From assembly GCA_015492295.1 (NCBI GenBank), contig WGFI01000099.1, positions 1 through 54,517 of the forward strand: a stretch of DNA of 54,517 nt, read 5' to 3'. Position numbers and translations under genes: made by a program. Positions 1 to 49,906 of the stretch are shown piece by piece (position 1 is the stretch's first letter; each line of letters begins with the position of its first letter). The stretch comes from a candidate division WOR-3 bacterium (GTDB lineage Bacteria > Hydrothermota > Hydrothermia > LBFQ01). The notes under the pieces were generated by a model. It had not been told where the DNA came from. It worked only from the letters and a program-made list of their open reading frames with translations, and searched no databases.

Positions 1-59
1 TAGCGTTGAAGGTCTATGAATGGGCAAAAGATATAGTTGAAGGTACGACCTTAGAATAG
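1..59 (+). CDS. HEPN domain protein, C-terminal fragment (cut by window edge)
   Basis: Frame from base 3 reads ALKVYEWAKDIVEGTTLE*, nearly identical to the C-terminus of HEPN 402..791. Confidence 0.85.
   Translation, partial: ALKVYEWAKDIVEGTTLE
46..57 (+). promoter_or_regulatory. Putative leaderless promoter CGACCT-TAGAAT
   Basis: -10-like hexamer 7 nt before GTG at 65; instance of window-wide motif. Confidence 0.65.
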
Positions 60-64
60 GGGTA

Positions 65-433
65 GTGAAGGAAGGGAAGGATTTACTTAAAAGAGACCCT
101 GTTCTCCGCCGTATAGTTGAGGTGATCGTTAGGGAGATAGACCCGGATAAAATAATCCTCTTTGGTTCAAGAGCGAGGGGAGATTACAAAGAAGATAGCG
201 ATTATGATATTCTCGTGCTTAAAGAAGGGGTTAGAGCGGAGGAAAGGAGGAAGATTGAGATGAAAATTGAGAGAATGTTTCTTAAAGAGGGTATATTTGT
301 CCCAACAGATGTTATAGTTCAAGATTCTCATAGGTATAAAAGTCTCAAAAAGCGTGTAGGTAAGGTATATTACAGCATAGAGAAGGAAGGGGTTCTGGTG
401 TATGAGTGTAGAAGATGCAAAGGAGTGGCTTGA
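65..433 (+). CDS. Minimal nucleotidyltransferase (MNT) antitoxin-like protein
   Basis: FGSRARGDYKEDSDYD (GSx10DxD), DVIV third Asp, EGVLVYE end motif; overlaps HEPN start. Confidence 0.9.
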   Translation: MKEGKDLLKRDPVLRRIVEVIVREIDPDKIILFGSRARGDYKEDSDYDILVLKEGVRAEERRKIEMKIERMFLKEGIFVPTDVIVQDSHRYKSLKKRVGKVYYSIEKEGVLVYECRRCKGVA

Positions 434-791
434 ATTTGCACGAAAGGATATAAGGAGAGCTTACAACAACGCATCGTTGGAAGATTATTCACTTGCAGTG
501 TATTTACTTCAGCAGGCAGTGGAAAAGTCGCTGAAAGCTGTTATCATTTTACATGGTAAAACCCCGCCCCGAACCCACAATATTCGTACGCTTATAGGTA
601 CCATTGAAGAATTTAAAGATTTTCCCGAGGATCTAGAAGATGCGGCTAATTTAACCCGTTATGCATTTGAAACGCGTTATCCAGATGAATACATTTCAGT
701 AGAGGAAAAGGAGTACGAAGAGGCTTATGATTTAGCGTTGAAGGTCTATGAATGGGCGAAAGATATAGTTGAAAGTACAGCCTTAGAATAG
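402..791 (+). CDS. HEPN domain protein (COG2250/HEPN-T type)
   Basis: W..A..D, QQAVEKSLKA, TH, RYPD motifs; paired with upstream MNT. Confidence 0.9.
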   Translation: MSVEDAKEWLEFARKDIRRAYNNASLEDYSLAVYLLQQAVEKSLKAVIILHGKTPPRTHNIRTLIGTIEEFKDFPEDLEDAANLTRYAFETRYPDEYISVEEKEYEEAYDLALKVYEWAKDIVESTALE

Positions 792-959
792 GGGTAATGA
801 AGGAAGGTAGAGATTTACTTAAAAGAGACCCTGTTCTCTGCCGCATAGTTGAAGTGATCGTCAAGGAGATAGACCCAGATAGGATAATCCTCTTTGGTTC
901 AAGGGCAAGAGGGGATTACAGGGAAGATAGTGATTATGATATTCTCGTGCTTAAAGAAG
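733..959 (+). repeat. Conserved junction repeat of MNT-HEPN array, copy 2
   Basis: Aligns without gaps to 1..226. Confidence 0.9.
778..789 (+). promoter_or_regulatory. Putative leaderless promoter CAGCCT-TAGAAT
   Basis: 7 nt before ATG at 797. Confidence 0.65.
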
Positions 960-1180
960 AGGTAAAGCCGGAGGATAGGAGGCCGTTGCAGAGGAGAATA
1001 AGGAGAGCGCTTTGGAGGGAGGATATTTACGGTTCGGCCTCAGTGGATGTGATAGTGCAGGACACTCGAAGATACGAGGATTTGAAGGAGAGGTGGGACC
1101 TTATATATTACGATGCCGATAAGGAGGGGGTGATTCTTTATGAGAGAAAGAGCAAAAGAGTGGCTAAAGTTTTCCCTTGA
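797..1180 (+). CDS. MNT antitoxin-like protein
   Basis: GSRARGDYREDSDYD motif; first ~54 aa almost identical to 65..433, C-terminal half divergent. Confidence 0.9.
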   Translation: MKEGRDLLKRDPVLCRIVEVIVKEIDPDRIILFGSRARGDYREDSDYDILVLKEEVKPEDRRPLQRRIRRALWREDIYGSASVDVIVQDTRRYEDLKERWDLIYYDADKEGVILYERKSKRVAKVFP

Positions 1181-1541
1181 TGACCTTGAGGTGGCCCGTG
1201 AGGCGGCAAAACTCGGAAAGTACAATATAGCGGCGTATCACCTACAACAGGCCGTTGAAAAGGCTATAAAAGGTGTTATAGTTTTTATTGGAAAGCGTAA
1301 AAGTTTAAAAACGCACGATATAAGTGTTCTTTTTAAGATGTTGATGGAGGAGGGTGTTAATGTACCCGTTGAAGTTTTGGACGCTCAGGAACTAACAGAG
1401 TACGCTTTCACAACTCGTTATCCCGACGATTACATCCCCGTTTCTGCGGAGGAGTACGAGGAGGCCTATGAAATAGCGTTGAAGGTCTATGAATGGGCAA
1501 AAGGGATAATAGAAGGTAGTGAAGGAGGGAAAGGGATCTGA
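1140..1541 (+). CDS. HEPN domain protein (COG2250 type), C-terminus altered by deletion
   Basis: QQAVEKAIKG, KTHD, TRYPDD, ALKVYEWAK motifs. Confidence 0.9.
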   Translation: MRERAKEWLKFSLDDLEVAREAAKLGKYNIAAYHLQQAVEKAIKGVIVFIGKRKSLKTHDISVLFKMLMEEGVNVPVEVLDAQELTEYAFTTRYPDDYIPVSAEEYEEAYEIALKVYEWAKGIIEGSEGGKGI

Positions 1542-1640
1542 TTCGGTTCAAGGGCGAAGGGGGATTACAAAGAGGACAGCGATTACGATATTCTCGTGCT
1601 TAAAGAAGGGGTTAGAGCGGAGGAAAGGAGGAAGATTGAG
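1474..1640 (+). repeat. Junction repeat of MNT-HEPN array, copy 3 (with two deletions)
   Basis: TAGCGTTGAAGGTCTATGAATGGGCAAAAG matches base 1 onward; 1591..1640 identical to ~210..259. Confidence 0.85.
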
Positions 1641-1820
1641 GGAAAGCTGCTTGTTGAGTTCCTCAAGGCGAGGATCTATAGGGATGTGGCCGTGGATGTG
1701 ATAGTTCAGCCGCCTGATAAGATTGAGGAGCTGAAGGACGTTCCTTATATGGTCTATTACGACGCTCACAGGGAGGGGGTAGTGATATATGAGGTGGAAC
1801 TTTCGGGTTTAGAATTCTAA
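1519..1820 (+). pseudogene. MNT pseudogene (N-terminal deletion and frameshift)
   Basis: GTG-KEGK start at 1519, about 73 nt shorter than copy 1, then out-of-frame FGSRAKGDYKEDSDYDILVLKE from 1542; no HEPN partner follows. Confidence 0.8.
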
Positions 1821-1821
1821 G

Positions 1822-2115
1822 GTGCTAACGCTTGCGGAGGTAAAGGAGATACTTAAGGGATACAAGGATGAGATAAGAGAGAGATACAAAGCGGAGATTT
1901 TGGGTGTTTTCGGCTCTTATGCGAGGGGTGAGCAGAATGAAAAGAGCGATGTGGATATTCTTGTCAGATTCCATAAGGGTGCAACGCTTTTTGATCTCGT
2001 TGAACTTGGAGATTTCCTTGAAGAAAAGCTCGGTATAAACGTGGATATAGTTTCGGAAAACGCCGTAAGGGAGGAGTTAAGAGATAGAATAGAGAAGGAT
2101 TTGGTCGCGCTGTGA
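1822..2115 (+). CDS. MntA-like nucleotidyltransferase antitoxin (COG1669 type)
   Basis: FGSYARGEQNEKSDVD, L...LG..VD.V motif; GTGA overlap with the DUF86 gene. Confidence 0.9.
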   Translation: MLTLAEVKEILKGYKDEIRERYKAEILGVFGSYARGEQNEKSDVDILVRFHKGATLFDLVELGDFLEEKLGINVDIVSENAVREELRDRIEKDLVAL

Positions 2116-3108: not shown

Positions 3109-3175
3109 AGGCGAATATTTTAACACGGCCAGCTTTTGCAAGGGGGATTTATTCCATCCTTAAAATTAAGGGATT

Positions 3176-3900: not shown

Positions 3901-4141
3901 TCTCCTCCGCCCTTTTCTTGTCTCCCTTCTTCTCATAGGCTTTGGCGAGGTTTTCGTAAACCATGGCGACATAAGGATGCTCAGGGCCTAAGGTTTTGAA
4001 GTATATCTTCAGGGCCTTGTTGAGATACTCAATAGCCCTGGAGTAGTCTTCTTTGTTGTAGTTTGCACTACATTTGTTTTCTCTTAATTCCTCCCAGCTT
4101 TTGGATAGGTAAAGGGTCCGCTCGGTTTTTCCAAAAAACAA
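3875..4141 (-). pseudogene. Short TPR protein or fragment, paralog of 2368..3108
   Basis: RAIEYLNKALKIYFKTLGPEHPYVAMVYENLAKAYEKKGDKKRAEE; weak TTG start. Confidence 0.6.
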
Positions 4142-4165
4142 ATTTTTCTGGGGTATAATAAACGG

Positions 4166-10774: not shown

Positions 10775-10786
10775 CAACTTTAAAAT
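10775..10786 (+). promoter_or_regulatory. Putative leaderless promoter CAACTT-TAAAAT
   Basis: 9 nt before nadA ATG, no SD. Confidence 0.65.
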
Positions 10787-14465: not shown

Positions 14466-14477
14466 ATTATAAAGTTG
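14466..14477 (-). promoter_or_regulatory. Putative leaderless promoter CAACTT-TATAAT
   Basis: 10 nt before trmFO ATG. Confidence 0.6.
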
Positions 14478-14935: not shown

Positions 14936-15859
14936 ATACTAATTCCTTTTATATCCCGTCAAAGAGCGGACAAAATCCTTATCTTTGTAGAAGCGCTGAA
15001 GGATACAAATTAAATCTTCCTCAATATCATCAAGGGAGTCATAAACTTTATTGGCCATTCTCTGTCTGATATACCTCCACATAGCCTCAGCAGGATTTAC
15101 CTCAGGCGTATAGGGAGGTGTGTAGAAAAAGGATATGTTCTCTGGAGCAAATCTCTCATCTCCTTGTTGAACTCCTCAAGAAACACCCTCACCGTCTCTC
15201 CCCCCAAATCAGGCAATATGAAAAACATCACATCCCCACTCAACACATCCACTGCACCGTAAAGATAAAAATACTCGTACTTATGTTGAATAGGTCAATC
15301 TGCCTTCTCTCCCTTAGGTATCCATACCTTTCTATGCTTCACTATCAAACCTACCCTCATCTCATCTTCCCATATCACCCTCTTACCCCTCAATATCACT
15401 ACTTTTTTTGAACTCCTTCTTTGGATCCTTCCTGACACTGTATGGCCTCCCGATTTTCTTCTTTGCTTTCAGCTTTTCCCTCATTATCGCGTGCATCCTC
15501 GTCTTGCTATACCTTACACCGTACTCCCTCACTATGAACTCTATGGCGTCCTTGATTGTTCTTATCCTTCCTCTCAGCATCTCTTCCCTTAACCTCTCAA
15601 ACGCCTTTTCGGGTACCTTCTGCCCACACCCTTTCTTCCTACCTATTTTCTTCAATTCCATCAGCTTTGCTATCCCTACTTCTTCATAACTCTTCCACCA
15701 CCTCGCTATCTGATACTTGCTATATCCTAAGATCTTCCCTGCATTCTCATAAGATGCCTTCGGTTTTTCCTTGAAAAACAATAGCATTTGAAGACGGGTC
15801 CTTCGGATCCTGTTCTTTACCTTTATCGGCATACACGCATTCTAAGGGGAAAAGGGTAT
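14936..15859 (-). mobile_element. Degenerate IS630-family insertion sequence
   Basis: HTH ORF 15383..15832; A7G slippery site 15402..15409; downstream frame WEDEMRVG...YLYGAVD...PPYTPEVNPAE.MW with internal stop and deletion; ends TA|ATAC on both sides (boundaries tentative). Confidence 0.85.
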
Positions 15860-19981: not shown

Positions 19982-20007
19982 ATTATAAAGATGTTCATCC
20001 TTAAAAT
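19982..20007. promoter_or_regulatory. Back-to-back divergent promoters (CATCTT-TATAAT on -, CATCCT-TAAAAT on +)
   Basis: 9 nt before ATG 19972(-) and 8 nt before ATG 20016(+); motifs separated by 2 nt. Confidence 0.65.
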
Positions 20008-20015: not shown

Positions 20016-20219
20016 ATGAAGGGTAGGAAGAAAATCGTATGGAAGGCTGTGGATAGGGTTTTTTCAAAAATGGGATACTTACTCCTTGATATGGAATTTT
20101 TGGAGGATAACCTCGTAATTATGTACGTTCTAACTCCGAAATGGACTATAAAAGAAATGACTGCGAGAATAGAGTTTGATGGACCTCTATCGTTCCGCTT
20201 AAAATTCGTTCGCCCTTAA
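20016..20219 (+). CDS. Small hypothetical protein
   Basis: 67 aa ORF filling the gap, with its own promoter motif. Confidence 0.6.
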   Translation: MKGRKKIVWKAVDRVFSKMGYLLLDMEFLEDNLVIMYVLTPKWTIKEMTARIEFDGPLSFRLKFVRP

Positions 20220-20232
20220 AATACACGATGGT

Positions 20233-25146: not shown

Positions 25147-25179
25147 ATTCTAAGGTCGTAATTATTTCAGCCTTAGAAT
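25147..25179. promoter_or_regulatory. Divergent promoters (CGACCT-TAGAAT on -, CAGCCT-TAGAAT on +)
   Basis: 9 nt before nuoC ATG and 8 nt before rpmI ATG. Confidence 0.7.
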
Positions 25180-33092: not shown

Positions 33093-33985
33093 AGGATCTT
33101 TTCCAATTCCTCTTTTAGTTCTTGTATTTCCTCTAATCTTGGGTTTAAGGCAGATAATATATCACAGATTGATATGAGTGCCTTTAAAGTGGGATAAGGT
33201 GGCAGGTGTATGTTTATGCCTTTTTCCGTAGGTTCAACTAACCCAAGGATAGGATCCAATAAGGGTTCATTTTGGGAGAACTCTATCATCTTGTAGCGAA
33301 ATTTTGTGGGGAGAGAATCATGAGATCTCAACATTTTTGAGTATATCTTGTTGATCTTTCGTGCATATTCCCTTCCATAATACTCATAGTTTCTCTCCGA
33401 CATAGGTTCATCAACGGAAAAGGCCTTAATTTCGTATATACCTTGCTGGAATAATATCTCATTGATATTCATAGTCTTTCCTCTTGAAAATGCCCCAAAA
33501 ACCACCCCGGATATTAAAACGCAGGAAACTTGAATGGGGGAATATATGCGCAGTATCCCAGAAAATCCAATATCTTTAAGCTCCTCAAAGACCTTTTGAG
33601 GTTCAGGTGTCATAGAATCCATTATTCTTGAAGACTTGTGTATTAGGGAGATCACAATAATTATATCGCTGTTGTGAGGATAAAACTTGAAGTTATACGC
33701 CTTCACTTTGGCAGAGGATGAAATCCTTCTTATAAACTCCTCATATCCGTATGAATATATATTGTCTTCGGATATACTTAGACCTTCAAGCATAACGCCA
33801 GAATCATAAAAACTAATGAACATTTCATTTAAACGAGAGAAGACCAATATCCCGGAGAGTGAATTATCCTTTATATCTCCCACCACATTTCTTAAATCAT
33901 TCCATTTTCCCTCACCTTCATAAAGGGGATCGTTGTAAAAGTCTTCAAGAATTTCTAAGATGTTTAAAGTCTTCAAGTATGCCAT
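33089..33985 (-). CDS. Hypothetical protein with two PATAN/DUF4388-like repeats
   Basis: LSGILVF...FYDSG and FSGILRI...LISG repeats. Confidence 0.5.
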   Translation of the reverse strand: MAYLKTLNILEILEDFYNDPLYEGEGKWNDLRNVVGDIKDNSLSGILVFSRLNEMFISFYDSGVMLEGLSISEDNIYSYGYEEFIRRISSSAKVKAYNFKFYPHNSDIIIVISLIHKSSRIMDSMTPEPQKVFEELKDIGFSGILRIYSPIQVSCVLISGVVFGAFSRGKTMNINEILFQQGIYEIKAFSVDEPMSERNYEYYGREYARKINKIYSKMLRSHDSLPTKFRYKMIEFSQNEPLLDPILGLVEPTEKGINIHLPPYPTLKALISICDILSALNPRLEEIQELKEELEKIL

Positions 33986-34322
33986 CTTTAACCGTATATG
34001 GATCCAATGTCCTTAAAAACGCGAATTCAAGTATCTCACCTTTATAAATGTGTTTTGCCAATTCATCGGGAGGATTTACTAAGCAATCCAGCAACTTCTC
34101 CTTTAAATTTTCCGCGGCATCGATGAGTACTATAAGATCCTTTTGGAACTTTCTCCTTATTATGAAAACTCCCGGTTCCTCAGGAACAAATTTCAATATG
34201 CTAAACTCATCAAAATCATACACATCATGCCAATCTGGCCACATCTTGATATTATAAACCCGAAAGAATTGTTCCACCTTGTAAAAATCTCTCACCTTTA
34301 AAATATCGTTTATGGATGTCAT
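33945..34322 (-). CDS. Degenerate GIY-YIG-like protein
   Basis: VPEEPGVFII...VLIDAAENLKEKL resembles UvrC N-terminal P..PGVY...YVGKA.NL..R. Confidence 0.5.
   Translation of the reverse strand: MTSINDILKVRDFYKVEQFFRVYNIKMWPDWHDVYDFDEFSILKFVPEEPGVFIIRRKFQKDLIVLIDAAENLKEKLLDCLVNPPDELAKHIYKGEILEFAFLRTLDPYTVKDGILEDFKHLRNS
34293..34304 (+). promoter_or_regulatory. Putative leaderless promoter CACCTT-TAAAAT
   Basis: 7 nt before ATG 34312, embedded in the antisense gene. Confidence 0.6.
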
Positions 34323-34719: not shown

Positions 34720-34973
34720 GGTACGAACTCGATTCATGCTGCTACCCCAAGAGTTCCTGTTGCATAAAATACGGCAGGGTTAATGGTAGGCAGAGTTATA
34801 AATGCAAAAGAACCGGTAGGAGATTCATATGGGGAGGCAAGTGGTATAAATACTCCGATGTTCTTCGGAGAAAGGCGAAAGAGATGTATATTCATGGTAT
34901 GAGCATAAGGGAGATTTCACGCGAACTCGCTATTCCATACTCAACAGTTAGAAGATGGATACGCAACCTGTAA
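34716..34973 (+). CDS. IS1 InsA-like zinc-ribbon + HTH protein (stand-alone)
   Basis: K.G..NGRQ.YKCK..GR.F then Y..GMSIREISR.L.I..STV.RW; ATGA-coupled to NlpC. Confidence 0.7.
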   Translation: MRYELDSCCYPKSSCCIKYGRVNGRQSYKCKRTGRRFIWGGKWYKYSDVLRRKAKEMYIHGMSIREISRELAIPYSTVRRWIRNL

Positions 34974-34986
34974 GTTTGCAAATTTT

Positions 34987-34998
34987 CAACCTTATAAT
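34987..34998 (+). promoter_or_regulatory. Putative leaderless promoter CAACCT-TATAAT
   Basis: 7 nt before ATG 35006. Confidence 0.7.
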
Positions 34999-35005
34999 AC
35001 CTACT

Positions 35006-35377
35006 ATGAAAGATTTCCTATCGCAGGTGAGATACAGAAAATCGGGAGAATATTGCGTTGTAAGGTTCATTGGAAGTTTGGATACCGCTTATAGGGAGCC
35101 CCTGATCATGTTCTTCGCCGACAGGTTAAAGGAAGGTTCCAGATACTTTATCATTGATCTGGCCAAGACGGATTACATGTCTTCAACGATATGGGGGGCA
35201 CTTATAACGGTGGCGAAAAGGGTGAGAGAAGGTGGAGGAGATATTTACCTGTGCGGAATACATGGGCAGGTAGGTACAGTTTTCAAAATACTCCAACTCA
35301 ATAGGATCATAAAGACTTATCCTGATGTATATAAGGCTGTTGAAGATTTGGGAATCGTTGGATTGGATATAGAATAA
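35006..35377 (+). CDS. STAS domain anti-sigma-factor antagonist
   Basis: G.LD, IIDL..TDYMSS..GAL, V..VF.I..L; start reassigned to ATG 35006. Confidence 0.88.
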   Translation: MKDFLSQVRYRKSGEYCVVRFIGSLDTAYREPLIMFFADRLKEGSRYFIIDLAKTDYMSSTIWGALITVAKRVREGGGDIYLCGIHGQVGTVFKILQLNRIIKTYPDVYKAVEDLGIVGLDIE

Positions 35378-35380: not shown

Positions 35381-36970
35381 ATGTTTGAGATCAACTATGT
35401 TCTATATAGGATATTTGAGGTCATAGGTGATATTGAGGAGATAAAGGGTGAAAATCGTTTTAAAGTTGAGGCGTATCGTAGGGCGGCAAAGAGGATAATA
35501 TCTTTCCCCGAAGATATAAAGTCGCTTTACGATGCCGAAGGTTTAAGAGGTTTAAAGGAGAAGCTCAAAGTGGGTGATGCGATAGCGGGAAAGATAGTGG
35601 AATATCTGCAAAGTGGAAGAATACATAAATATGAAGAATTAACCTCTGAGGTTCCCATAACTCTGATTGATCTCTTAAAAATCAGGGGTATAGGTCCAGC
35701 CACCGTAAGGGATCTGTGGAAAAAGGGTATAACCTCCTTGGAAGATTTGGAGAGATTTCTGAATAAAGAAGAGGCGAGAAAAATGTTCAAGGATCCCGAA
35801 AAAATATATGAAAATCTGAAATTTTACAAGTCTCAGAAGGATTTACTCTTGATCAGTGAAGCCGTTCCTCTGGTTAAATCATTCACCTATGAGTACAGAT
35901 CCGCCATAGCAACCGGTGCGTTCCGCAGGGGGGAGCCCTTGATAGACATCCTTGAGTTCGCGATTATGGAAGATGACGCGTTCAAATTGGCTGCATCCGG
36001 TAGGTTTGAAAACGGTTATTGGTTGTGGGGAGGCGAAAGGATACCCGTAAGGATACATATATACGATGAGGATAATTTGGGGGAGGTCTTGGTTTATTCA
36101 ACCGGTCCCGACGAGCATATACGAGCATTGATGAATCTCGGAGAGATAAAGGGTGCGAGCGAGGAGGAGGTTTATGAGAGGCTCGGTCTAAAATACATAC
36201 ATCCTTTTCAGAGGAACGATGGGAGGGAGGTTGAACTTGCACAGGATGGAAATCTTCCCAAACCGATCTTGCCCGAAAATGTAATGGGCGATTTCCATGT
36301 GCATACGACATTCTCCGACGGTTCCATGAGCGTTGAGGAGGCCATATTAAACGCGATAAATAGAGGATATACGGCCGTCGCTTTGGCTGATCATTCTCCA
36401 TCATCAGGATACGCAGGTGGATTGAATGAGGAGAGGTTGAAGGAGAAGTATCTTGAAATATTAAGATTAAGGGACAAGTATCCTTATATAAGGATACTTT
36501 TTGCTACGGAGGTTGATATAAAATCCGATGGGAGTTTGGACTATCCGGATGATATACTTGAAAAGTTTGACCTTGTAATAGCTTCCGTGCATAACTGGAA
36601 GGATGATGAGGATGTAACGGACAGATTGTTGGCTGCTATAAGGAACCCTTATGTGCATATAATAGCTCATCCACGAGGAAGGATATTGAAAAAGAGGCCT
36701 TCCTATAATGTTGATATTGATACCGTTCTTGAAAAAGCCAAGAAATACGGTAAAGTATTGGAAATAAACGCCAATCCAAAGAGGGTGGATCTTGATGCCT
36801 ATGTCATTATGGACTACGATGGACTCGTGTGCATAAATACGGATGCGCATAGGGAATGGGATATGGATTTTATGTTCATAGGGTGCGCGCAAGCGAGTAG
36901 AGCGAGGATTCCCGGCAATAGGGTTATAAACTGCGAGGAATCGGATTTCATAAAAAATCTTCACCTTTAA
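35381..36970 (+). CDS. polX: PolX/PHP protein with degenerate polymerase site
   Basis: ENRFKVEAY, HhH G.GP, GAFRR, PHP motifs DFHVHT.SDG, DHS, EVDI, AHP, EIN, TDAH. Confidence 0.9.
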   Translation: MFEINYVLYRIFEVIGDIEEIKGENRFKVEAYRRAAKRIISFPEDIKSLYDAEGLRGLKEKLKVGDAIAGKIVEYLQSGRIHKYEELTSEVPITLIDLLKIRGIGPATVRDLWKKGITSLEDLERFLNKEEARKMFKDPEKIYENLKFYKSQKDLLLISEAVPLVKSFTYEYRSAIATGAFRRGEPLIDILEFAIMEDDAFKLAASGRFENGYWLWGGERIPVRIHIYDEDNLGEVLVYSTGPDEHIRALMNLGEIKGASEEEVYERLGLKYIHPFQRNDGREVELAQDGNLPKPILPENVMGDFHVHTTFSDGSMSVEEAILNAINRGYTAVALADHSPSSGYAGGLNEERLKEKYLEILRLRDKYPYIRILFATEVDIKSDGSLDYPDDILEKFDLVIASVHNWKDDEDVTDRLLAAIRNPYVHIIAHPRGRILKKRPSYNVDIDTVLEKAKKYGKVLEINANPKRVDLDAYVIMDYDGLVCINTDAHREWDMDFMFIGCAQASRARIPGNRVINCEESDFIKNLHL

Positions 36971-36973
36971 AAT
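36962..36973 (+). promoter_or_regulatory. Putative leaderless promoter CACCTT-TAAAAT (includes polX stop)
   Basis: 9 nt before ATG 36983. Confidence 0.6.
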
Positions 36974-36982: not shown

Positions 36983-38554
36983 ATGGATGACTTCATCCTA
37001 GAAATATCGGATATTGTAGGAAGGTATATCAATGCGAAACCGATCATCTTGTCGGAGAATAAGCTTGAAATCGGAGAGTTCATCATCATCAAGCACGATG
37101 AGCAGATTAAAATAACGAGTTCGACATTCGCGGATGTTCTTCCCGAAATAATTCACTCAAAAATCTGGAAATTGAGATTCTTCTCGGAGGACCTGTCGTC
37201 CGTCCCATACAAACCTTTACTCAGGGAATTACCACGGAACGAAATTGAAAATCTTTTCAGGGTTATGTTGAGTAAGGATTACGAGATAAGATTCGTAAAA
37301 GAGAAATATACCGTCAAAGATCTGGAGGATCTAATATCAAAGATACATTCACCTGCCATAGATCCCTCGTCGTACTCATATATGGAAGTCGCTTATAATG
37401 GAGATGAGTTCCCCTACGATTTCCTGAGGTTTATAAAGGTTATGAAGGACAGGTATGTTATGAGCTATCCAAGACGCAAGGAGAGGTTAAACCAGCTGTT
37501 GGAGTTTTTTGATGTAAAGGTTTATAATGCCGTAGGAGTTGAATGGTGCGAAATTTATACGGATTTTGGAAGAATTGTGATAAGCAGGGAGGTTGGCAGG
37601 GAGGATTACGGCGTATTTATGGAAGACGATTTTACAAGTTCGGGCACGCGATTCAGAAGGGATAAGTCGTTTGGTAATGCACCTTTTATCAACGGTAGTT
37701 TCCCCGATAGTTCAGGGGAATTGATATTCTTAGGGTATGATAATCAAAGGGAGCTGATAAAGGAGAAGCTTGAACAGATGGGGAAAGATACGGTTTTTAT
37801 CAAATTTGAAAGTTTAACGGAGAAGGAAGAGAAGATCATAAAATTGCTTAACAAATACGGCAGCATCCTGCTCGTGGGACCTCCTGGGACGGGAAAAACA
37901 TACACAGCAAGGAGGGTGGCGAATTTCATCGCTGGCAGAGAAGGGAAGAACTGGATACTCATCCAATCTTCTCAATCGTTTGAATATGAGAATTTTGTTG
38001 AGGGATTGAAACCCGTTGAAAGCTCGGGGGTGATAAACTTCAAGGTTGTAGAGGGACCGTTTCTAAAACTGCTTAACAGAGCATTATCAAATCCCAAGGA
38101 GAAGTTCGTAGTTATAATAGATGAGATAAACAGGGGAAATGTGGCGGCATTGTTGGGAGAAATACTCTACGCAATTGAATATAGGGATAGCCCCGTTATA
38201 AGACCCTATTCCTCCAAGTTCATGATCATACCCAGAAATCTTTACATAATAGCCACTATGAATGAAAGGGATAGTAATGTTATAAAGGTGGATCAGGCTG
38301 TATTGAGGAGATTTCCGGTTGTATTCTTTGAGCCTTCGGAGGAGGAATTGAGAAATTACTTGGAATCCAAAGGTTGGCATGAGGAGGATATAGAGGAGGT
38401 TGTGAGTCTCTTCAAGAAAATAAACTCATTGACGAATAATTCCTTAGGTCATACCTACTTTTATTCTGAGAATTTGGAGGATTTTAAAGAGAGATTTGAA
38501 CACTTCATAAAACCTCTCCTAAAAATACACTTCGGCATAACAGAACTGAAATAA
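36983..38554 (+). CDS. McrB-like AAA+ NTPase with unrecognised N-terminal domain
   Basis: GPPGTGKT, YE.FVEG, IIDEINRGN, ATMNERD (NxxD), LRRF, GHTYF. Confidence 0.85.
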   Translation: MDDFILEISDIVGRYINAKPIILSENKLEIGEFIIIKHDEQIKITSSTFADVLPEIIHSKIWKLRFFSEDLSSVPYKPLLRELPRNEIENLFRVMLSKDYEIRFVKEKYTVKDLEDLISKIHSPAIDPSSYSYMEVAYNGDEFPYDFLRFIKVMKDRYVMSYPRRKERLNQLLEFFDVKVYNAVGVEWCEIYTDFGRIVISREVGREDYGVFMEDDFTSSGTRFRRDKSFGNAPFINGSFPDSSGELIFLGYDNQRELIKEKLEQMGKDTVFIKFESLTEKEEKIIKLLNKYGSILLVGPPGTGKTYTARRVANFIAGREGKNWILIQSSQSFEYENFVEGLKPVESSGVINFKVVEGPFLKLLNRALSNPKEKFVVIIDEINRGNVAALLGEILYAIEYRDSPVIRPYSSKFMIIPRNLYIIATMNERDSNVIKVDQAVLRRFPVVFFEPSEEELRNYLESKGWHEEDIEEVVSLFKKINSLTNNSLGHTYFYSENLEDFKERFEHFIKPLLKIHFGITELK

Positions 38555-38569
38555 TTTTTCAGGCTTAGA

Positions 38570-40495
38570 ATGTTTATCTTGCTGGGCTGGTATTTATGGA
38601 CCAATACGGAAAATCTTTTGGATGTTTGTAGTAGGAATGATACTTTCTATTTGGCGACTTCGGGAGGATTACTCGTGGTCTATAACGATAGCGTAATAAG
38701 AAAATACACAAAACTTGATGGGATAAATACCGCTGAGGTGCTTTCCGTATCGTGTGAAAACGGTTTATGGATTTTGAGTGGAAGGGGTTTGCAATACTTT
38801 GAAGATGGTAGGTTTAAGACATTGGATCTCATATCCTTTAACGATCCTGATGAGGTGCTTAGCGCTAAGAAAATAGGGGTAAAGGGTCAGTATATGTTCA
38901 TACTCGGTAAAACTCGGGTACTCGCTTACCGCATTACCGATTCAACGGAGGTGCCCTTTTATGTGGGATTTAACAAGCCGAAATATATTGAAATATTCGG
39001 AGATACGTTGGTTGTAGGGGATACACTCGGCCTGTATAAGGTATTCTATTCAAGCTTCTCATCCTCCTCCTGGGATACGGTATTCTTGGGTCGTCCTGTA
39101 TTTTCAGCGGCAAGGCATCCCTATATGGGTTGGTTGATGGGTACGGATACGGGAATTCTGGATACAAATGGAAGCATAATGTACCTTGCCGGTAGAAAGA
39201 TAAACTTTATAAGTCTTAGAGGGGATACGATCTGGGTTTCAACGGATACATTCGTTTATAGGATAGATCCATCGTCCTCTCCCGTGGCCGTTAAAGGGGG
39301 TTATGCGCTATATCTATCAAAGGACTTCGTCGGTTTTGGAAAGCTCAACGCATCGTTTTATATGTTTGGGGGAGGAATATATAGGATTCCGGATTTCAAA
39401 AAGTTGAAAACCCGTGGGATTCCCTATACCACCATAACCGGTATGCTTCTACTCGGCGACAGTCTTATAGCATGCGGGAGAGGTGGAGTTAATGCATGTG
39501 CCGTGTGGCCATCGGGTGATACATTCGGATTTGGACTCGTCAATGTTGTGAAGTACTACGATGGTAAGATTTATTTGGGTTTAAACGGTGGAGGTTTGGT
39601 TATACTTTCTCCCGACTTTTCCGACACCGTAAAGATTGAACCTTCGGAGATCGGAGGGTTCGGTTATGTGTTTGACATAACTCGCATGAACGGGAATATA
39701 TACTTCGTATCCTGGGAACCTTTGGGAAATGCAAAGGTTTTTAAAGTAGTAGATACGGTTGCAGAAGAAACGGGATTTATAGATTACGCTACGGATATAT
39801 TGTACTCTGCGGGTGATAAGTTTGTGCTCTGCGGGCAGGGTGCTTGCAAGGTACTATATTCGGACTTCAAACCTTATGGAAGCATAAGCGCTGACGCGAA
39901 TGTTGTATATCATTATGGGGATACACTGTTCATAGGTACCAGCGATGGTCTTGAAGTGTATTCTTTGAGTACCCTCGGATTCATAACCAAGGTTCTTGAA
40001 GGTAGTTCAATAACGGGTATTTGGAGGGGGTTGGATGGAAAGCTATGGGTATCTGGAAGCGATGGACTGGTGGTATTGGATAAGGACTTCAACGTAATCG
40101 GAACCTACACACCCGAAAATTCACCTCTGCCGGGATATTCAATTTCTCCCAGCGTTCTCTATCCCCTTAGATTTACCCTTCTCGGTGATGCTCCGAGTGG
40201 AAGGATATATATTGCGACGGATAAAGGTATAGGGATATTGCAGGATACGAGTGTATCATCAGGTTGGTGGAAGAGTTTAAAGGTGTATCCGAATCCTGCT
40301 AAGAGGAATGCCATAGTTAAGGTACTAAACTGCCCCGAGGGTGCAAATTTAAAGGTTTTTACACTTTCGGGAATCTTACAAAGAGAGGTTAAGGGTTGCT
40401 CCTTTAAGAACGACCTACCCGCTGGACTTTACATAATACATATTGAATACTCTGGAAAACGAGCGCTTCTGAAAGTCGTCTTGCTTGATAGATGA
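38570..40495 (+). CDS. PorZ-like beta-propeller protein with T9SS-type C-terminal domain
   Basis: Propeller blades (ATSGGL, GT..GL, YTPENSPLP) and VYPNP...VFTLSG...AGLYII C-terminus. Confidence 0.7.
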   Translation: MFILLGWYLWTNTENLLDVCSRNDTFYLATSGGLLVVYNDSVIRKYTKLDGINTAEVLSVSCENGLWILSGRGLQYFEDGRFKTLDLISFNDPDEVLSAKKIGVKGQYMFILGKTRVLAYRITDSTEVPFYVGFNKPKYIEIFGDTLVVGDTLGLYKVFYSSFSSSSWDTVFLGRPVFSAARHPYMGWLMGTDTGILDTNGSIMYLAGRKINFISLRGDTIWVSTDTFVYRIDPSSSPVAVKGGYALYLSKDFVGFGKLNASFYMFGGGIYRIPDFKKLKTRGIPYTTITGMLLLGDSLIACGRGGVNACAVWPSGDTFGFGLVNVVKYYDGKIYLGLNGGGLVILSPDFSDTVKIEPSEIGGFGYVFDITRMNGNIYFVSWEPLGNAKVFKVVDTVAEETGFIDYATDILYSAGDKFVLCGQGACKVLYSDFKPYGSISADANVVYHYGDTLFIGTSDGLEVYSLSTLGFITKVLEGSSITGIWRGLDGKLWVSGSDGLVVLDKDFNVIGTYTPENSPLPGYSISPSVLYPLRFTLLGDAPSGRIYIATDKGIGILQDTSVSSGWWKSLKVYPNPAKRNAIVKVLNCPEGANLKVFTLSGILQREVKGCSFKNDLPAGLYIIHIEYSGKRALLKVVLLDR

Positions 40496-42030
40496 CTTAT
40501 CGCAGAACGATAATCCTGCTCACTTTCTCTTTTATGGGTTTTATATTCTCCTTTGTTGTGTATCTGAATAGGATAAATGATAGTTCATTGATAGGTCTTG
40601 ATAGGAAAAACTATCAGAAAAAGATACCCATGGGGAAGATAAGGGGAAGACTCATAAGCGCGGATGGAAAATATATAACGGACTTTTATGTGAAATACAA
40701 GGTTGTACAGATGAATTCAAAGGACAATAGGGATGTTTTGGAGAGGAAGGAAGTTGAAGAATTTTTGGGTAGAAGGTTGAAAATCAAGGAATACAAATAT
40801 TTGGGCTATTCGGAATTCTTGGATTTAACGGACGATGAGGTTTTAAAACTTATGAAAAAGAAGTATAAGTTTAAAACTTTGGTGTTTGTGCCTTATGCGA
40901 AGAGGATACTAAGATGTAAGCCTTGCTATCATATAATTGGCCATGTTTCAATAGATGGAAGAGGATTAGGGGGGTTGGAGAGGTTTTATGATAAGAGATT
41001 ATCCGGATCATTCGCGAATATAATTATGGATGTTGATGCATTTGGCAATGTAGTTTCTCCTTTTATAGTTGAAACGAATACAAAGGTAAAAGACATCGTG
41101 CTTACTTTGAGATATGATCTATACGAACTCGTGGATAGTCTGTTCTCTAACTACGAAAGGGGTGCAGTTTTTATGTTTAACCCCAAGAATGGTTATGTAT
41201 ATTTGGTGTATTCAAAGCCTTCCCCTTTTGATAGTTTAAAGGACGCACCGATGCTTAATAGGGCTTTGAGCGGTTTATACCCACCAGGTTCAACCTTTAA
41301 GCCTTTGGTAGCGCTTTTGGCATTGAAAGAAGGCATAATAGACACCGGCTTTGGTGTATCATGCCCGGGATATATATTCGTGGGCGGACACAGATTTCGT
41401 TGCTGGACGAAGCATGGATATGTTAAGTTTGAAAGAGCGATAGCTTTATCATGCAATGTATATTTTTACAACATAGGCGGAAGATTCGGTGCGAGAAGAC
41501 TTTTGAGATCCTTACTCTCAACGGGTTTATTCGACAGGAAATTTACCCAACTTCCTGAGGAGACTCCTTCAAGGATAAGGGTAAGGAACTTCTACTTGGG
41601 TACCGCCTTGAATCTGGCGATAGGCCAAGGTGAAGTATTGGTAACCCCCGTGTTCATGGCCGTGCTCGCGGGTTTGATAGGGAACGGTGGATGGGTGGTT
41701 TTACCAAGATTCTCATCTTATGACAGTGAGAGGGTTTTTAGACTTGAGGCGCCGAAGTGGGCTTATGATAAGGTTAGGAAGGGTATGTTAAGGGTTGTGG
41801 AAGAAGGGACGGCTTACTATTCGCGCATAGAGGGATTTAAATACGGAGGTAAGACGGGTACGGCGCAAAATCCTCATGGGAAGGATCATTCCCTTTTCAT
41901 AGCGTTTGCTCCTTATGATGATCCCACCGTGGCTATGGCGGTTATCGTTGAAAATGCTGGACATGGAAGCTCCGCAGCCGCACCCATCGCCTCAAAAATA
42001 ATAAAACACTTCTTCAACATTCAACCGTAA
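40492..42030 (+). CDS. mrdA: Class B penicillin-binding protein (PBP2-like)
   Basis: N-terminal TM, YPPGSTFK, SCNVYFY, IGQG, KTGTAQ. Confidence 0.85.
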   Translation: MTYRRTIILLTFSFMGFIFSFVVYLNRINDSSLIGLDRKNYQKKIPMGKIRGRLISADGKYITDFYVKYKVVQMNSKDNRDVLERKEVEEFLGRRLKIKEYKYLGYSEFLDLTDDEVLKLMKKKYKFKTLVFVPYAKRILRCKPCYHIIGHVSIDGRGLGGLERFYDKRLSGSFANIIMDVDAFGNVVSPFIVETNTKVKDIVLTLRYDLYELVDSLFSNYERGAVFMFNPKNGYVYLVYSKPSPFDSLKDAPMLNRALSGLYPPGSTFKPLVALLALKEGIIDTGFGVSCPGYIFVGGHRFRCWTKHGYVKFERAIALSCNVYFYNIGGRFGARRLLRSLLSTGLFDRKFTQLPEETPSRIRVRNFYLGTALNLAIGQGEVLVTPVFMAVLAGLIGNGGWVVLPRFSSYDSERVFRLEAPKWAYDKVRKGMLRVVEEGTAYYSRIEGFKYGGKTGTAQNPHGKDHSLFIAFAPYDDPTVAMAVIVENAGHGSSAAAPIASKIIKHFFNIQP

Positions 42031-42037
42031 AATATCA

Positions 42038-43057
42038 ATGTTGAGGAGATGGGTAATACTTTTGGGTTTTATGGTCGTATCCTGTGGTGATAACGAGGTT
42101 GAAATTTGGTATTGGCTCGGTGAAATACACGATTATCATTTCAGGCAGTCCCTTAACAAGACTTGGAGAAAAGTCAATGTCAGTCTCCTTAGGAAGAGCT
42201 TTTCATCTATAAATGAGCTGGACGAATCATTGAAGGTTAGGAAGCCGGATGTGGCCTTGGTCTATCCGAGCACTTTGAAGAATCTGATAAAGAAAGGGGA
42301 AGTGGTTAGGATCACCGATAAAGATATAATACCCGATTATTGTGAAGGTCATTGCTTTCCCATCTTTAAGAGCTTTGTAGGTTTTTACATCAACGAGGAT
42401 CTCGCGAAGCAGGTGAATTTTCCCTTGAATTTCAAGATAGAGGATCTTTTGAATCTAAATACGGATTATATAGTTTTCGGAATCTACCCTTCGGCAACAT
42501 TATACACTGCGCTGATCTTCACGTACTTATCCGAGGGATACGATACTCTTGAAGCCTGCGTTAAGGTTTTTAACTATCTTAGGGCATTAGCCAAGCGACC
42601 TTATGTTAGAATATATCCTAATCCGCGGGTCGCTGAGATGGATATGGTTCTTATGAAAATAGTTTCAATAGTGGGGACGAGCGCTTACAAACCTTACATT
42701 GAAAGGGAAGGAGTGAGTCTGACATTCTTGCCTTTAATAAACTCTAAGGGTGAGAAGGTTTATTTCCTTTCGGGGCCGGATTTTGTGGTATTTAGAGGTG
42801 GAAATGTGAAAAAATCAAAAGAATTTCTCAATGTCCTCAACGATGTTATAAAGAACGATACTATGTGGCAAAGGTTCGGGTATTATCACATTGATAAATT
42901 GGAGAGTTTTGGAAATGTTTTTCATGATTTGAAGGTGGATTTTGATAGGGTTAAGTTGAGAAATCTGGCAAGAAAGGCGCTGAATCCTATGGATACTTTG
43001 AACTACGATATAGAAGGGCTTTGTAAGAAAGCTGTTATGAAGAAGCTACACCAATAA
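42038..43057 (+). CDS. Lipoprotein, ABC substrate-binding-like
   Basis: Lipobox VVSC; extracellular solute-binding family 1-like pattern (PDV, P....GFYIN). Confidence 0.55.
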   Translation: MLRRWVILLGFMVVSCGDNEVEIWYWLGEIHDYHFRQSLNKTWRKVNVSLLRKSFSSINELDESLKVRKPDVALVYPSTLKNLIKKGEVVRITDKDIIPDYCEGHCFPIFKSFVGFYINEDLAKQVNFPLNFKIEDLLNLNTDYIVFGIYPSATLYTALIFTYLSEGYDTLEACVKVFNYLRALAKRPYVRIYPNPRVAEMDMVLMKIVSIVGTSAYKPYIEREGVSLTFLPLINSKGEKVYFLSGPDFVVFRGGNVKKSKEFLNVLNDVIKNDTMWQRFGYYHIDKLESFGNVFHDLKVDFDRVKLRNLARKALNPMDTLNYDIEGLCKKAVMKKLHQ

Positions 43058-43063: not shown

Positions 43064-43091
43064 CAGCCTTATAATACCTGCTGACAGGAGG
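43064..43091 (+). promoter_or_regulatory. Promoter CAGCCT-TATAAT plus Shine-Dalgarno AGGAGG
   Basis: Motif 22 nt before ATG 43098 with a canonical SD in between. Confidence 0.7.
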
Positions 43092-47843: not shown

Positions 47844-48603
47844 ATTTCCCGGCTTTGAGGATGTAGGATGCCCACTTTTTGAGTTTATGGACCTTCTCAA
47901 CATCCTTCTTTTTAACTATTATATCGCAACCTTTCGTTTGTGCCGCTTCTATGACTATTCTCCCTCCTGGTAGAGTTTGAACCTTACCTTTCACATACTT
48001 TATGGCTTTACTCCACATATCCTTTGCGACCTGATGCTCCGCAGCGTCAAACAGGACATTCCCATTCTCATCCAGAATCCTCGGATACATACAGGCCTTC
48101 ATTCCCTCGGGAGTTTTCACTATAACGCTGCCGTCAAACGGTTCCTCCTTAGGCATACTGACCACAGGTTTTTTGGCTGGCAAATTTTTCGCGAGTTCAT
48201 CCAGCCTCATCTCAACCCATACCTCAACACGACCATCTTTGTAATACTTTGGTTTCCCTATTACACGAGCGTTCTTAACGAGACCTTGAACCCTCTGTAC
48301 TATAATATCGCTTGAAGTCATATAATCCTCAACCACGGTTTCGGATGTTATATGAACACCTTTGACTATTTCAAGTAGGTTTCTGCGAGCATCAACCACT
48401 GCCGCCCTTTCAGCCAGGAGTCTGGCCTGACCTTTCGGTTTCTTGGGATCCATGAAACCGTATCCTTTGGCTCGTATGAATCCGTTGGTCCAGTCTATCT
48501 CACCTTTATCGTATATCTCCTTTACGGTCGTGTCCCTTATGCTCTTTTCTTTTTTACCCGGTTGCACAGCAGGCTTTTGCGCTAATATAACTATCCACAT
48601 CAT
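47821..48603 (-). CDS. LPP20-domain exported protein
   Basis: IDW..G.I.A.G.G, A.RAA.VDARRNL.E.V.G. Confidence 0.7.
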   Translation of the reverse strand: MMWIVILAQKPAVQPGKKEKSIRDTTVKEIYDKGEIDWTNGFIRAKGYGFMDPKKPKGQARLLAERAAVVDARRNLLEIVKGVHITSETVVEDYMTSSDIIVQRVQGLVKNARVIGKPKYYKDGRVEVWVEMRLDELAKNLPAKKPVVSMPKEEPFDGSVIVKTPEGMKACMYPRILDENGNVLFDAAEHQVAKDMWSKAIKYVKGKVQTLPGGRIVIEAAQTKGCDIIVKKKDVEKVHKLKKWASYILKAGKFIINLVM

Positions 48604-48611
48604 ACTTGGAA

Positions 48612-48640
48612 ATTCTAAGGTTGTTTCTCTCGTTTGTCAA
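48612..48640 (-). promoter_or_regulatory. Canonical sigma70 promoter TTGACA-17nt-TAGAAT, leaderless
   Basis: Perfect -35, 17-nt spacer ending in CAACCT, -10 located 8 nt before ATG 48603. Confidence 0.85.
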
Positions 48641-48645
48641 GTGGG

Positions 48646-49776
48646 TTATTTGACAATGACTTTTAGATGGGCACCTTTTATGGATATGATATACACACCT
48701 TTTGGAAGGCGGAATTTTCTTTCTCCCTTTACATATCCTTCTTCCACCAAAGCGCCAGATAGGTTGTAAATTTTCACTTCTCCTTCGTAGTTCTTAACAA
48801 TCACATACTCTCCATCGTAATACGCTTTCGGATTCCTTATAATGTTCTTCTCCTCAACTCCAAGTTCATCTTCACCAACCAATGGACATGTGCCGCATAG
48901 CGCCCTTGCGGTTATAAGATCGCCATAGCTTCCACCGCCAACATAGCAATACTCAACTGTGGCCGTTCCATAAGGAGGTAGATTTCCTATGTACCAATCA
49001 AGCAGACAGTATCCATCCCCTGTGTAAGATGAAGGGTAATCTATTGACGAAGTATATGCGTCATAATTGTCCCATGCGTAAAGCTCATAGATGCTTACCG
49101 GCGTTATTCCTGTAAGTCCGGCATAATGCGCCCAGTCGTTTGCGACAGCGTAGCACATGTCGTTTGCACCATCCCAGTAGAAATAGTTGCTTGAGAAGTA
49201 CCCCGGATTCATATCCCAATCTATGAATCTCTTAAACTTCACACCCGTGAGCGTGGTTGATGTTAGGTTTATTATGGTGGCCCTTCCTCTAAGGGCGCCT
49301 ACGGATGGGCAGTACGAGTACTGCTGATATACTTCTATCGTACCATCCCACAATCTTGTCCTCGTCCACCACTGATACACTGTGGGTCCCCAGGTTGCTG
49401 TACCTGAACCCAGATTACTTAAGTTGAAATAGCTCGCATCCCCATGAGTATAACCGTAACGTGTTCCGTATGTGGTATGTCCCACTCCGAAACCGTTGCA
49501 CATGCATCCCCATCTGTAATGCTCTTGACCGGGAGGATATTGAAACCTATATATCTGTGGATCCATCATCTGCACCATTATTACACCCGATGGAGGGCTG
49601 AAAAGGACAAAAGGTACCCAGGTCTCTCCATCCTGGATGTGAGCCCTCTGCTCATCGCTTAGAGGTGGAAACTCCCCAGCGTATAATAAGGGAGTTATAC
49701 CTGCTATACTGAGTAGCATTAGGGGTTTTATACCCCTTTTTCCTTTTGCGAAGATTTTGAAGTTTAGCATTTTCAT
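48646..49776 (-). CDS. Secreted Cys/aromatic-rich protein with T9SS-type C-terminal domain
   Basis: Long classical signal peptide, SD AGGAGGTG, C-terminal GVEE...IYNLSG.LV...LPKGVYII...KVIV. Confidence 0.8.
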   Translation of the reverse strand: MKMLNFKIFAKGKRGIKPLMLLSIAGITPLLYAGEFPPLSDEQRAHIQDGETWVPFVLFSPPSGVIMVQMMDPQIYRFQYPPGQEHYRWGCMCNGFGVGHTTYGTRYGYTHGDASYFNLSNLGSGTATWGPTVYQWWTRTRLWDGTIEVYQQYSYCPSVGALRGRATIINLTSTTLTGVKFKRFIDWDMNPGYFSSNYFYWDGANDMCYAVANDWAHYAGLTGITPVSIYELYAWDNYDAYTSSIDYPSSYTGDGYCLLDWYIGNLPPYGTATVEYCYVGGGSYGDLITARALCGTCPLVGEDELGVEEKNIIRNPKAYYDGEYVIVKNYEGEVKIYNLSGALVEEGYVKGERKFRLPKGVYIISIKGAHLKVIVK

Positions 49777-49894
49777 AACATCACCTCCTTTTTTGCCATT
49801 ATTTTTAAGCTGTTAAGCTAAGAATATATTATAAAGGGGTAAAAAAGTTTGTGGGGGGTGAGATCCATTCAGACCTCATATGAGCCACCTTTCG

Positions 49895-49906
49895 CAACCT
49901 TATAAT
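49895..49906 (+). promoter_or_regulatory. Putative promoter CAACCT-TATAAT
   Basis: 14 nt before ATG 49921. Confidence 0.6.

Follow-up and report, generated by a model that had tools for sequence, protein, structure and literature searches.

A C-rich extended -10 promoter, positioned for leaderless-type gene starts, in a Hydrothermia (WOR-3) bacterium

The stretch of DNA examined here (the window) is the whole of contig C99 (GenBank WGFI01000099.1; 54.5 kb), one of 121 contigs in a 1.96-Mb metagenome-assembled genome (MAG; 41.7% GC, 90% complete) of a candidate division WOR-3 bacterium of the Hydrothermia. The element under study is a twelve-base motif, CRNCYTTADAAT, in which a C-rich half (CRNCYT) directly precedes a hexamer (TADAAT) and which recurs a few nucleotides (nt) before start codons. 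A sequence-only reading of the window had listed 16 exact matches; all are present at the coordinates and strands it gave, and its estimate of fewer than one chance occurrence per window agrees with a mean of 0.74 (maximum 3) in 100 dinucleotide-preserving shuffles, of which 0/100 held 16 or more. Scans of the window for tRNAs and Rfam families returned no matches. The sites are described by their gap, the number of nt between motif end and start codon, and where a score in bits is attached to a window site it derives from the tRNA-based position weight matrix (PWM) introduced below. Fourteen of the 16 lie 7-10 nt before an ATG or GTG, as claimed in that reading and confirmed from the sequence context and the list of open reading frames (ORFs).

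A gap of 7 nt is found at four sites, all on the plus strand. The first two, CGACCTTAGAAT at 46..57 (before GTG 65) and CAGCCTTAGAAT at 778..789 (within the 3' end of ORF 402-791, before ATG 797), precede the first and second copies of an MntA-like nucleotidyltransferase, and the others are CACCTTTAAAAT at 34293..34304, before ATG 34312 of an NlpC/P60 peptidase, and CAACCTTATAAT at 34987..34998 (27.8 bits), before ATG 35006. Window positions 1-1541 are a tandem duplication of a two-gene module, in which an overlapping ORF comes after each of the nucleotidyltransferase ORFs (65-433 and 797-1180); the flanks of sites 46 and 778 are near-identical for about 40 nt upstream and 60 nt downstream, and since promoter and flanks were duplicated with the module the two sites count as one independent event. 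Gaps of 8 nt occur at CATCCTTAAAAT, 19996..20007 (+; 23.9 bits), before ATG 20016 of a short ORF under the calling threshold; at a second CAGCCTTAGAAT, 25168..25179 (+; 21.1 bits), before ATG 25188 of a short ORF that may encode ribosomal protein L35; and at CAACCTTAGAAT, 48612..48623 (minus strand), before ATG 48603, which has the perfect TTGACA (48635-48640, 17 nt upstream of the hexamer) that the earlier reading had pointed out. The five sites with gaps of 9 nt are a further CATCCTTAAAAT at 3155..3166 (+; GTG 3176 of a 127-amino-acid ORF with no family match), CAACTTTAAAAT at 10775..10786 (+; 24.5 bits; ATG 10796 of quinolinate synthase NadA), CATCTTTATAAT at 19982..19993 (minus; ATG 19972 of a thiol-disulfide oxidoreductase-like protein), a second CGACCTTAGAAT at 25147..25158 (minus; ATG 25137 of a NuoC-family protein) and a second CACCTTTAAAAT at 36962..36973 (+), inside the end of a PolX-like gene and upstream of ATG 36983 of an McrB-like ATPase. 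Gaps of 10 nt are seen at CAACTTTATAAT, 14466..14477 (minus), before ATG 14455 of TrmFO, and at CGCCCTTAAAAT, 20211..20222 (+), before ATG 20233 of an FKBP-type prolyl isomerase. The back-to-back pairs reported earlier are likewise present, 2 nt apart at 19982-/19996+ and 9 nt apart at 25147-/25168+. The two exceptions to the 7-10-nt rule are a second CAACCTTATAAT at 49895..49906 (+), 14 nt before ATG 49921 of an M23 peptidase, and CAGCCTTATAAT at 43064..43075 (+), which has the top score of the window (29.5 bits) and is followed by a 22-nt leader containing GGAGG and by ATG 43098 of a 2-oxoacid:ferredoxin oxidoreductase beta subunit; this last is a leadered use of the same promoter.

Protein evidence agrees with these start assignments. 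Family profiles align from the N-terminus for TrmFO, the FKBP-type protein (residue 1 on profile position 1) and NadA; in TrmFO the GxGxxG motif begins at residue 8, making a later start impossible. In TrmFO orthologues from related MAGs the start codon (ATG, GTG or TTG) is preceded, at 8-10 nt, by a -10 box, and those of Bacillota and Aquificota have AGGAG instead. ATG 35006 is an in-frame start 17 codons within the longest ORF (34955-35377); the promoter at 34987-34998 indicates that it is used and that the longest-ORF start at 34955 is probably wrong.

Genome-wide, the exact twelve-mer occurs 425 times and its reversed pattern 27 times, and CRNCYT precedes 6.5% of the 6540 TADAAT hexamers, compared with about 0.3% expected from base composition. 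Genes were called with a crude script based on ORFs and codon bias (1795 genes), and every gene count is therefore approximate. With that proviso, the 425 matches divide into 285 with an in-frame start of a called gene 4-13 nt downstream, 26 upstream of tRNAs, 40 with a start 14-200 nt downstream, and 74 in other places. A PWM 22 nt wide, with sites kept at 15 bits or more, found 723 sites (43 in the control), among them 511 at 4-13 nt before an in-frame start, 39 before tRNAs and 58 at 14-200 nt before a start.

The clearest indication of what the motif does comes from genes that are not translated. Of 45 tRNA genes predicted by ARAGORN, 40 have it ending 7-15 nt upstream of the mature 5' end (mode 9), in 26 cases as the exact twelve-mer, and the five without it are internal to one tRNA cluster or directly behind the RNase P RNA gene; the latter itself has CCACTTTATAAT some 9-10 nt upstream of its 5' end. 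A tRNA-Leu lacking a promoter of its own immediately follows RNase P RNA (C53:8302-8794, minus strand), and the two are probably co-transcribed. The occurrence of the same motif at the same distance before untranslated RNAs and before start codons identifies it, on sequence grounds, as a transcription promoter and not a translation signal. A second PWM, seeded on the tRNA upstream sites alone and thresholded at 14 bits, found 409 sites in the genome and 31 in the reversed sequence (804 and 79 after iteration); its information content is about 20 bits, a value inflated by thresholding, where 12.2 bits would be needed for some 800 sites. It converges on TAnAAT at 99% per position, which includes the near-invariant A-11 and T-7 of the TAnnnT pattern and supports the earlier assignment of the hexamer as a sigma70-type -10 box.

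The base profile of 695 aligned sites (TAnAAT located 5-12 nt upstream of a start that ranks among the first three candidates) shows C-18 in 88%, C-15 in 77%, C or T at -14 in 84% and T-13 in 70%, bearing out the view that the upstream C-rich half is a real, conserved part of the promoter. Upstream of it, T makes up 47-67% of positions -23 to -19 and A about 52% (51-53%) of -26 to -24; downstream, A-6 is present in 62%. The same alignment contains no information from -36 to -30. TTGACA-like sequences (at least 5/6 matches) at spacers of 16-20 total 78 over 720 sites, where each control offset gives about 5. The hexamers of adjacent divergent promoters are no more than 30 nt apart in 39 of 164 pairs (mode 20-22, minimum 14); when promoters are packed this closely, one promoter's "-35 region" coincides with the discriminator of the other. 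Both the missing information and the close packing uphold the claim that no -35 element is involved, and we infer that the promoter would function without one.

A second promoter class is present in the same genome: a conserved cassette of about 45 nt, TTGACA-N17-CATAAT, in 12 copies before 16S, 5S, transfer-messenger RNA (tmRNA) and several protein genes led by Shine-Dalgarno (SD) motifs. Its sequence is AGATGACCCTAC-TTGACA-AGGGGGTCAATTTCAGA-CATAAT-TGAATGG, with a TTGAC...GTCAA palindrome over the -35, and the C-rich extension is found in 0/12 copies. The copy upstream of 16S is on contig C48 (about 3120-3170 of fetched locus L081, minus strand), and 11 further copies are on contigs C16, C33, C45, C48, C54, C57, C61, C84 and C113. 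The residues of RpoD that read a -35 (R584, E585, R588 and Q589) are kept, suggesting that this bacterium's polymerase can still use one.

The relation of the motif to start codons is equally regular. In 531 of 1748 genes TADAAT ends 6-11 nt before the first possible start, and SD-like words peak 5-9 nt before other starts. At the 511 start-proximal PWM sites the gap has a mode of 8-9 nt, ATG accounts for 440 of the starts, and 414 rank first among the candidates of their ORF; in the other 97 the start has a candidate rank above 0, that is, it is shifted downstream as at 35006. An SD word is also present in only 2 of these 511 genes. The promoter precedes 220 of 368 divergent transcription-unit heads, 88 of 213 genes with an upstream spacer of at least 40 nt and 163 of 1067 operon-internal genes, and a strict SD-like motif precedes 329 of the 1067; with CCTCC at its 3' end, the 16S rRNA could pair with SD motifs of the other genes. 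The two bases before the start codon (-2 and -1) are mostly pyrimidines (T-1 in 68%), giving a Y(-1)R(+1) context at the A of ATG. The leaderless-type layout proposed earlier is thus borne out by the spacing to starts, from which leaderless transcripts would follow.

Taken together, these findings make it very probable that this organism uses the motif as its main housekeeping promoter, about 22 bp long, self-sufficient without a -35 and read most likely by the primary sigma factor RpoD. It would consist of an A/T tract from -26 to -19, the bases C-18, C-15, C/T-14 and T-13, the hexamer TAnAAT and a pyrimidine-rich discriminator starting with A; the C-rich block sits where a TGn extended -10 would, and the T tract where a spacer AT-tract would. 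Transcription would start 8-10 nt past the hexamer, yielding leaderless mRNAs, or leaders of at most 5 nt, from the first genes of operons, and tRNAs and RNase P RNA with nearly no 5' leader; SD-like motifs stand before many operon-internal genes and before the minority of leadered first genes. As a promoter with a leaderless-type layout the element is well supported by its sequence context; the exact start site, the protein that reads it and its independence of a -35 in vivo are what we infer from that context.

Several observations weigh against parts of this reading. Of the 723 PWM sites, 115 lie elsewhere (91 of them intergenic), with no called target. Promoters with a weak extension might be expected to rely more on a -35, and the difference in -35 presence (3% versus 5-8%) is a weak trend in small numbers. 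Direct readout of C-15 and C-18 by sigma is without positive support, the residues that read an extended -10 being unchanged, as detailed below. The gap of 8-9 nt exceeds the 6-8 nt given for leaderless genes of Mycobacterium tuberculosis in the relevant passages of PMC6028130. Finally, a purine occupies the fifth nucleotide past the hexamer in 68-78% of sites whatever the gap, and this conservation means that leaders of about 3-5 nt are possible.

This last point belongs to the alternative that survives best, namely that the promoters are real and the mRNAs not strictly leaderless, transcription starting at that purine or at other upstream positions to give leaders of 3-6 nt. The constancy of the purine speaks for it, as does the placing of the start-codon A at the ninth to tenth base past the hexamer, which is the far end of the range of start sites in Escherichia coli. 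Against it, the pyrimidines at -1 and -2 form the usual context of a start at the A of ATG; at least eight tRNA promoters (of the ATCTTCTTC type) have no purine between the second nt past the hexamer and the first base of the tRNA; and a start only 5 nt past the hexamer would be closer than any we know of for a sigma70 holoenzyme. On balance we regard such short leaders as possible, if doubtful.

The distribution of the element argues that it arose within the group to which this organism belongs. This EM3 lineage is described as a class of WOR-3 in the available portions of PMC12285271 and PMC12542636, the former of which also concerns a cultured Hydrothermia isolate, sy37. Within its own family (f1), the twelve-mer is enriched 4.7- to 24-fold over the reversed control in 11 of 11 other genomes; in the sister family f2 enrichment is 2.5-fold in one genome, in other families of the class it is about 1-fold, and in some 110 genomes of other classes of the phylum it is also about 1-fold, except for one genus with up to about 2.3-fold. 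Enrichment is thus confined essentially to one family, in keeping with the earlier claim of lineage specificity. For seven relatives, promoters were read in fetched pieces of the genome, at gene starts and upstream of tRNAs. A second genus of f1 (G005, 57% GC) has the same grammar, with C-18 in 92%, C-15 in 70% and the box at about half of the genes. Family f2 (G012, G013 and G014) has C-15 in 77-88%, T-14, T-13 and TAAAAT-TT, with no C-18, no -35 and a weaker leaderless peak. Families f3, f4 and f5 (G025, G020 and G027, respectively) have TTG at -36 to -34 with TATAAT, as TTG-N17-TATAAT, and SD motifs are dominant. The tRNA promoters of f2, (G/A)C(T/C)T-TAAAAT-TTT, are as AT-rich in the 51% GC genome G012 as in G013 and G014 at 28-30% GC. 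This series from f3-f5 through f2 to f1 indicates, from sequence comparison, a stepwise innovation inside the class, in which the order lost the -35 and acquired C-15 before f1 added C-18.

Which protein reads the conserved C bases is less readily settled. RpoD of this organism (566 amino acids) aligns with E. coli sigma70, whose numbering is used here, at a constant offset of +50, and its region 2.3/2.4 is intact (Y430, W433, W434, Q437, T440 and R441 are conserved), as are R451, H455 and E458. According to the relevant parts of a study of the Taq open complex (PMC4593229), H455 and R451 contact the -17 and -16 phosphates, E458 and R441 read the G:C pair at -14, and the zipper of the beta' subunit contacts the -17 phosphate. 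R441, R451, H455 and E458 are identical in every family of the class, motif-using or not, and on this point the sequence-only reading, which had proposed an altered sigma region 3, is not supported. The only order-specific change nearby is Q446H, which distinguishes f1 and f2 from eight other families and was rejected as a sufficient determinant of C-15 on two grounds. The sequence ADHxRTIRIP has H at position 446, where most solved sigmas have Q; this H is standard in sigma A of Planctomycetota, and a degenerate DNA scan for the sequence listed more than 100 loci, mostly from Planctomycetota and Rokubacteria, with MAGs of Methylomirabilota too. One Planctomycetota genome with H446 (G160), moreover, has TTGACA-type tRNA promoters and no C-15. 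In one genus (g4) of the sister family f2, RpoD has M or I at the position of T440.

The beta' subunit offers a further candidate. At the N-terminus of rpoC (contig C19) there is a basic insertion of 13 residues, EAERKGRERNEYGL, between a conserved WS and the zipper sequence GEVK...INY. It is found in f1, f2 and f5 and is absent from f3, f4, f6-f9 and the Thermus and E. coli chains; f1 alone has INYKTL in the zipper, with K for the zipper arginine of INYRTQ. As a determinant the insertion is not sufficient, since f5 has it and keeps a -35 TTG, and it remains a lead. The gamma subunits of cyanobacteria have an insertion at the same site of beta'.

We favor direct readout of C-18 and C-15 by RNA polymerase (RNAP), because positions -18 to -13 lie under sigma and beta' in solved complexes. 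A more comprehensive and tentative proposal is that this order of the Hydrothermia has rewired basal promoter recognition: the -35 would have been dropped genome-wide for mRNA and tRNA genes, a new duplex readout of C-15, Y-14 and T-13 (with C-18 in f1) would have replaced it, made by parts of RNAP other than the canonical residues of sigma region 3.0, and the start would have moved to 9-10 nt past the hexamer. Candidate readers would be the zipper region of beta', where the basic insertion of 13 residues and the R-to-K change lie, or a re-used E458; the shift in start would give leaderless mRNAs and nearly leaderless tRNAs; and the classic -35/-10 cassette would be retained for rRNA, tmRNA and a few protein genes.

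If RNAP itself does not read the C-rich block, the block could be bound by another protein, an abundant DNA-binding factor that recruits or stabilizes RNAP at nearly all promoters. The identity of the sigma residues contacting -17 to -12 in families with and without the motif, the insufficiency of Q446H as the sole nearby substitution, and the presence of the beta' insertion in the -35-using family f5 would all fit such a factor. We consider it unlikely, given that the block abuts the hexamer on a DNA face that in solved open complexes is already covered by the beta' zipper and by regions 2 and 3 of sigma (PMC4593229, in part), that no candidate factor has been identified, and that the extended -10 and AT-tract elements at the same positions in E. 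coli need no extra factor, as described in parts of PMC4593229 and PMC7229825. Much less probable again is that the reader is an alternative sigma factor of 287 amino acids (contig C51) and not RpoD. Three sigma70-family genes were found in the genome, and the TTGACA-N17-CATAAT class seems a better target for a classic RpoD; the hexamer TAnAAT, however, is the consensus of primary sigmas, the 287-amino-acid protein has no WW pair in region 2.3 and is recognized by no primary-sigma model above cut-off, and its homologues occur in 30 of 30 relatives searched, which include users and non-users of the motif and span all sampled families of the class. Least credible of all is a role in translation, with the motif acting on the mRNA as a ribosome-binding site of non-SD type next to start codons. 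The fixed spacing and the lack of SD words would speak for it, yet it is contradicted by the tRNA and RNase P RNA genes with the motif at the same distance, by the concentration of the motif at transcription-unit heads and by its occurrence 14-200 nt upstream of SD-led genes such as that behind site 43064.

Other known arrangements were considered and set aside. The non-SD ribosome-binding motif of group B, from bacteria of the Fibrobacteres-Chlorobi-Bacteroidetes (FCB) group, was rejected because the motif precedes tRNAs and many internal genes have SD-like motifs instead. A leaderless promoter of the archaeal type, with a B recognition element and a TATA box about 22-26 nt before the start, was rejected on the gap mode of 8-9 nt; the host is bacterial, its 16S matching the bacterial small-subunit rRNA model at 1458 bits, and a sigma70 and a bacterial RNase P RNA are present. 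A reading of the motif as a mobile repeat was also rejected.

In its layout the system resembles group C of GeneMarkS-2, in which a -10 box lies a few nt before the first genes of operons and internal genes use SD motifs (PMC6028130, in part): here the box is about 6-10 nt from first-gene starts with ribosome-binding sites elsewhere, an assignment made from the layout. Group C, with its Pribnow box close to first-gene starts, is reported mainly for Actinobacteria and Deinococcus-Thermus in those passages, which, the species list of Table S4C aside, do not mention WOR-3 or Hydrothermia; the present case differs also in a spacer of 8-9 and not 6-8 nt, in its strong C-18/C-15/Y-14/T-13 extension and in having no -35. 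Like the TGn extended -10 of E. coli and Gram-positive bacteria, as treated in parts of PMC4593229, the C-rich block lies directly upstream of the hexamer (-13 to -18) and could replace a -35. Instead of T-15 and G-14, however, it has C-15 and Y-14, TG is not enriched, and there is an additional, nearly invariant C at -18, although the TG-reading residues E458, R441 and H455 are conserved all the same. In E. coli, -10 elements that lack a -35 are activated, through R451 of sigma70, by an AT-tract at -17 to -23, which marks spurious or horizontally acquired promoters and is depleted at canonical ones (PMC7229825, in part). The T-rich tract at -23 to -19 and the conserved R451 match that description, yet -18 is C and not A/T, and in the present genome the tract belongs to the canonical promoter, alongside specific C bases.

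Whole lineages are known to depart from the TTGACA-N17-TATAAT model, including Campylobacter and Helicobacter, with promoters lacking a -35, and Bacteroidetes, with TAnnTTTG promoters. Their grammar is different, and to our knowledge they are not known for pervasive leaderless mRNAs. Our literature search found no paper joining leaderless transcription or promoters with WOR-3, none joining sigma70 with Q446 and, among work on -35 and -10 elements, leaderless mRNAs and thermophiles, none on this motif. In their available portions, the WOR-3 papers PMC12285271 and PMC12542636 do not mention "leaderless", "promoter" or "Shine-Dalgarno", and "sigma" is absent from the former and "sigma factor" from the latter. 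What is known, therefore, is the leaderless layout of group C and the replacement of a -35 by TGn or by an AT-tract acting through R451; what is new is the sequence of the extension (C-15/Y-14/T-13 with C-18), its genome-wide use at mRNA, tRNA and RNase P RNA genes, the 8-9-nt spacing, the lineage, and a transition that can be traced inside one class.

From a practical perspective, twelve bases would make up the everyday promoter of an uncultured bacterium from a thermal vent, and WOR-3, a deep-branching and barely cultured group, would be added to the bacteria in which leaderless-type gene starts are pervasive. Many starts in this group will be misplaced by gene callers that expect SD motifs, the pair 34987/35006 being an example. 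The genome would also be a natural example of promoters that, throughout, lack a -35 and owe their specificity to a non-TG extended -10 while the TG-reading residues of sigma are unchanged, permitting direct experiments on how RNAP reads -13 to -18. The change can be followed in one class, from families with TTG-N17-TATAAT and SD motifs, through a sister family with CTT-TAAAAT, to the present family with C-18, and these families would supply matched pairs of RNAPs for swap experiments. A self-sufficient promoter of about 22 bp would be a compact expression part for thermophiles.

Several lesser sites complete the description of the window. The four near-matches noted earlier are present: TCCCCTTAGAAT at 15839..15850 (minus), before ATG 15832 with a gap of 6; CAGGCTTAGAAT at 38560..38571 (+; 18.5 bits), before an in-frame TTG at 38579 with a gap of 7, in the gene of the sorting-domain protein described below; CAACCGTAAAAT at 42022..42033 (+; 19.6 bits), before ATG 42038 (gap 4) or an in-frame TTG at 42041 (gap 7); and CCCCTTTATAAT at 49828..49839 (minus; 16.5 bits), with a 51-nt leader before ATG 49776. 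Additional promoter-like sites, each with a gap of 6 nt, are CGGGTTTAGAAT at 1804..1815 (+; GTG 1822; 13.5 bits), CTGGGGTATAAT at 4148..4159 (+; TTG 4166; 15.0 bits) and CGGGTTTATAAT at 34251..34262 (minus; 19.6 bits), whose ATG 34244 is in frame with ORF 33945-34322 and which is the divergent partner of 34293+. The McrB-like AAA ATPase (36983-38554) adjoins a protein of 641 amino acids (38570-40495) with a C-terminal sorting domain of the type IX secretion system (T9SS) type, a tail that fits with an FCB-related placement of WOR-3.

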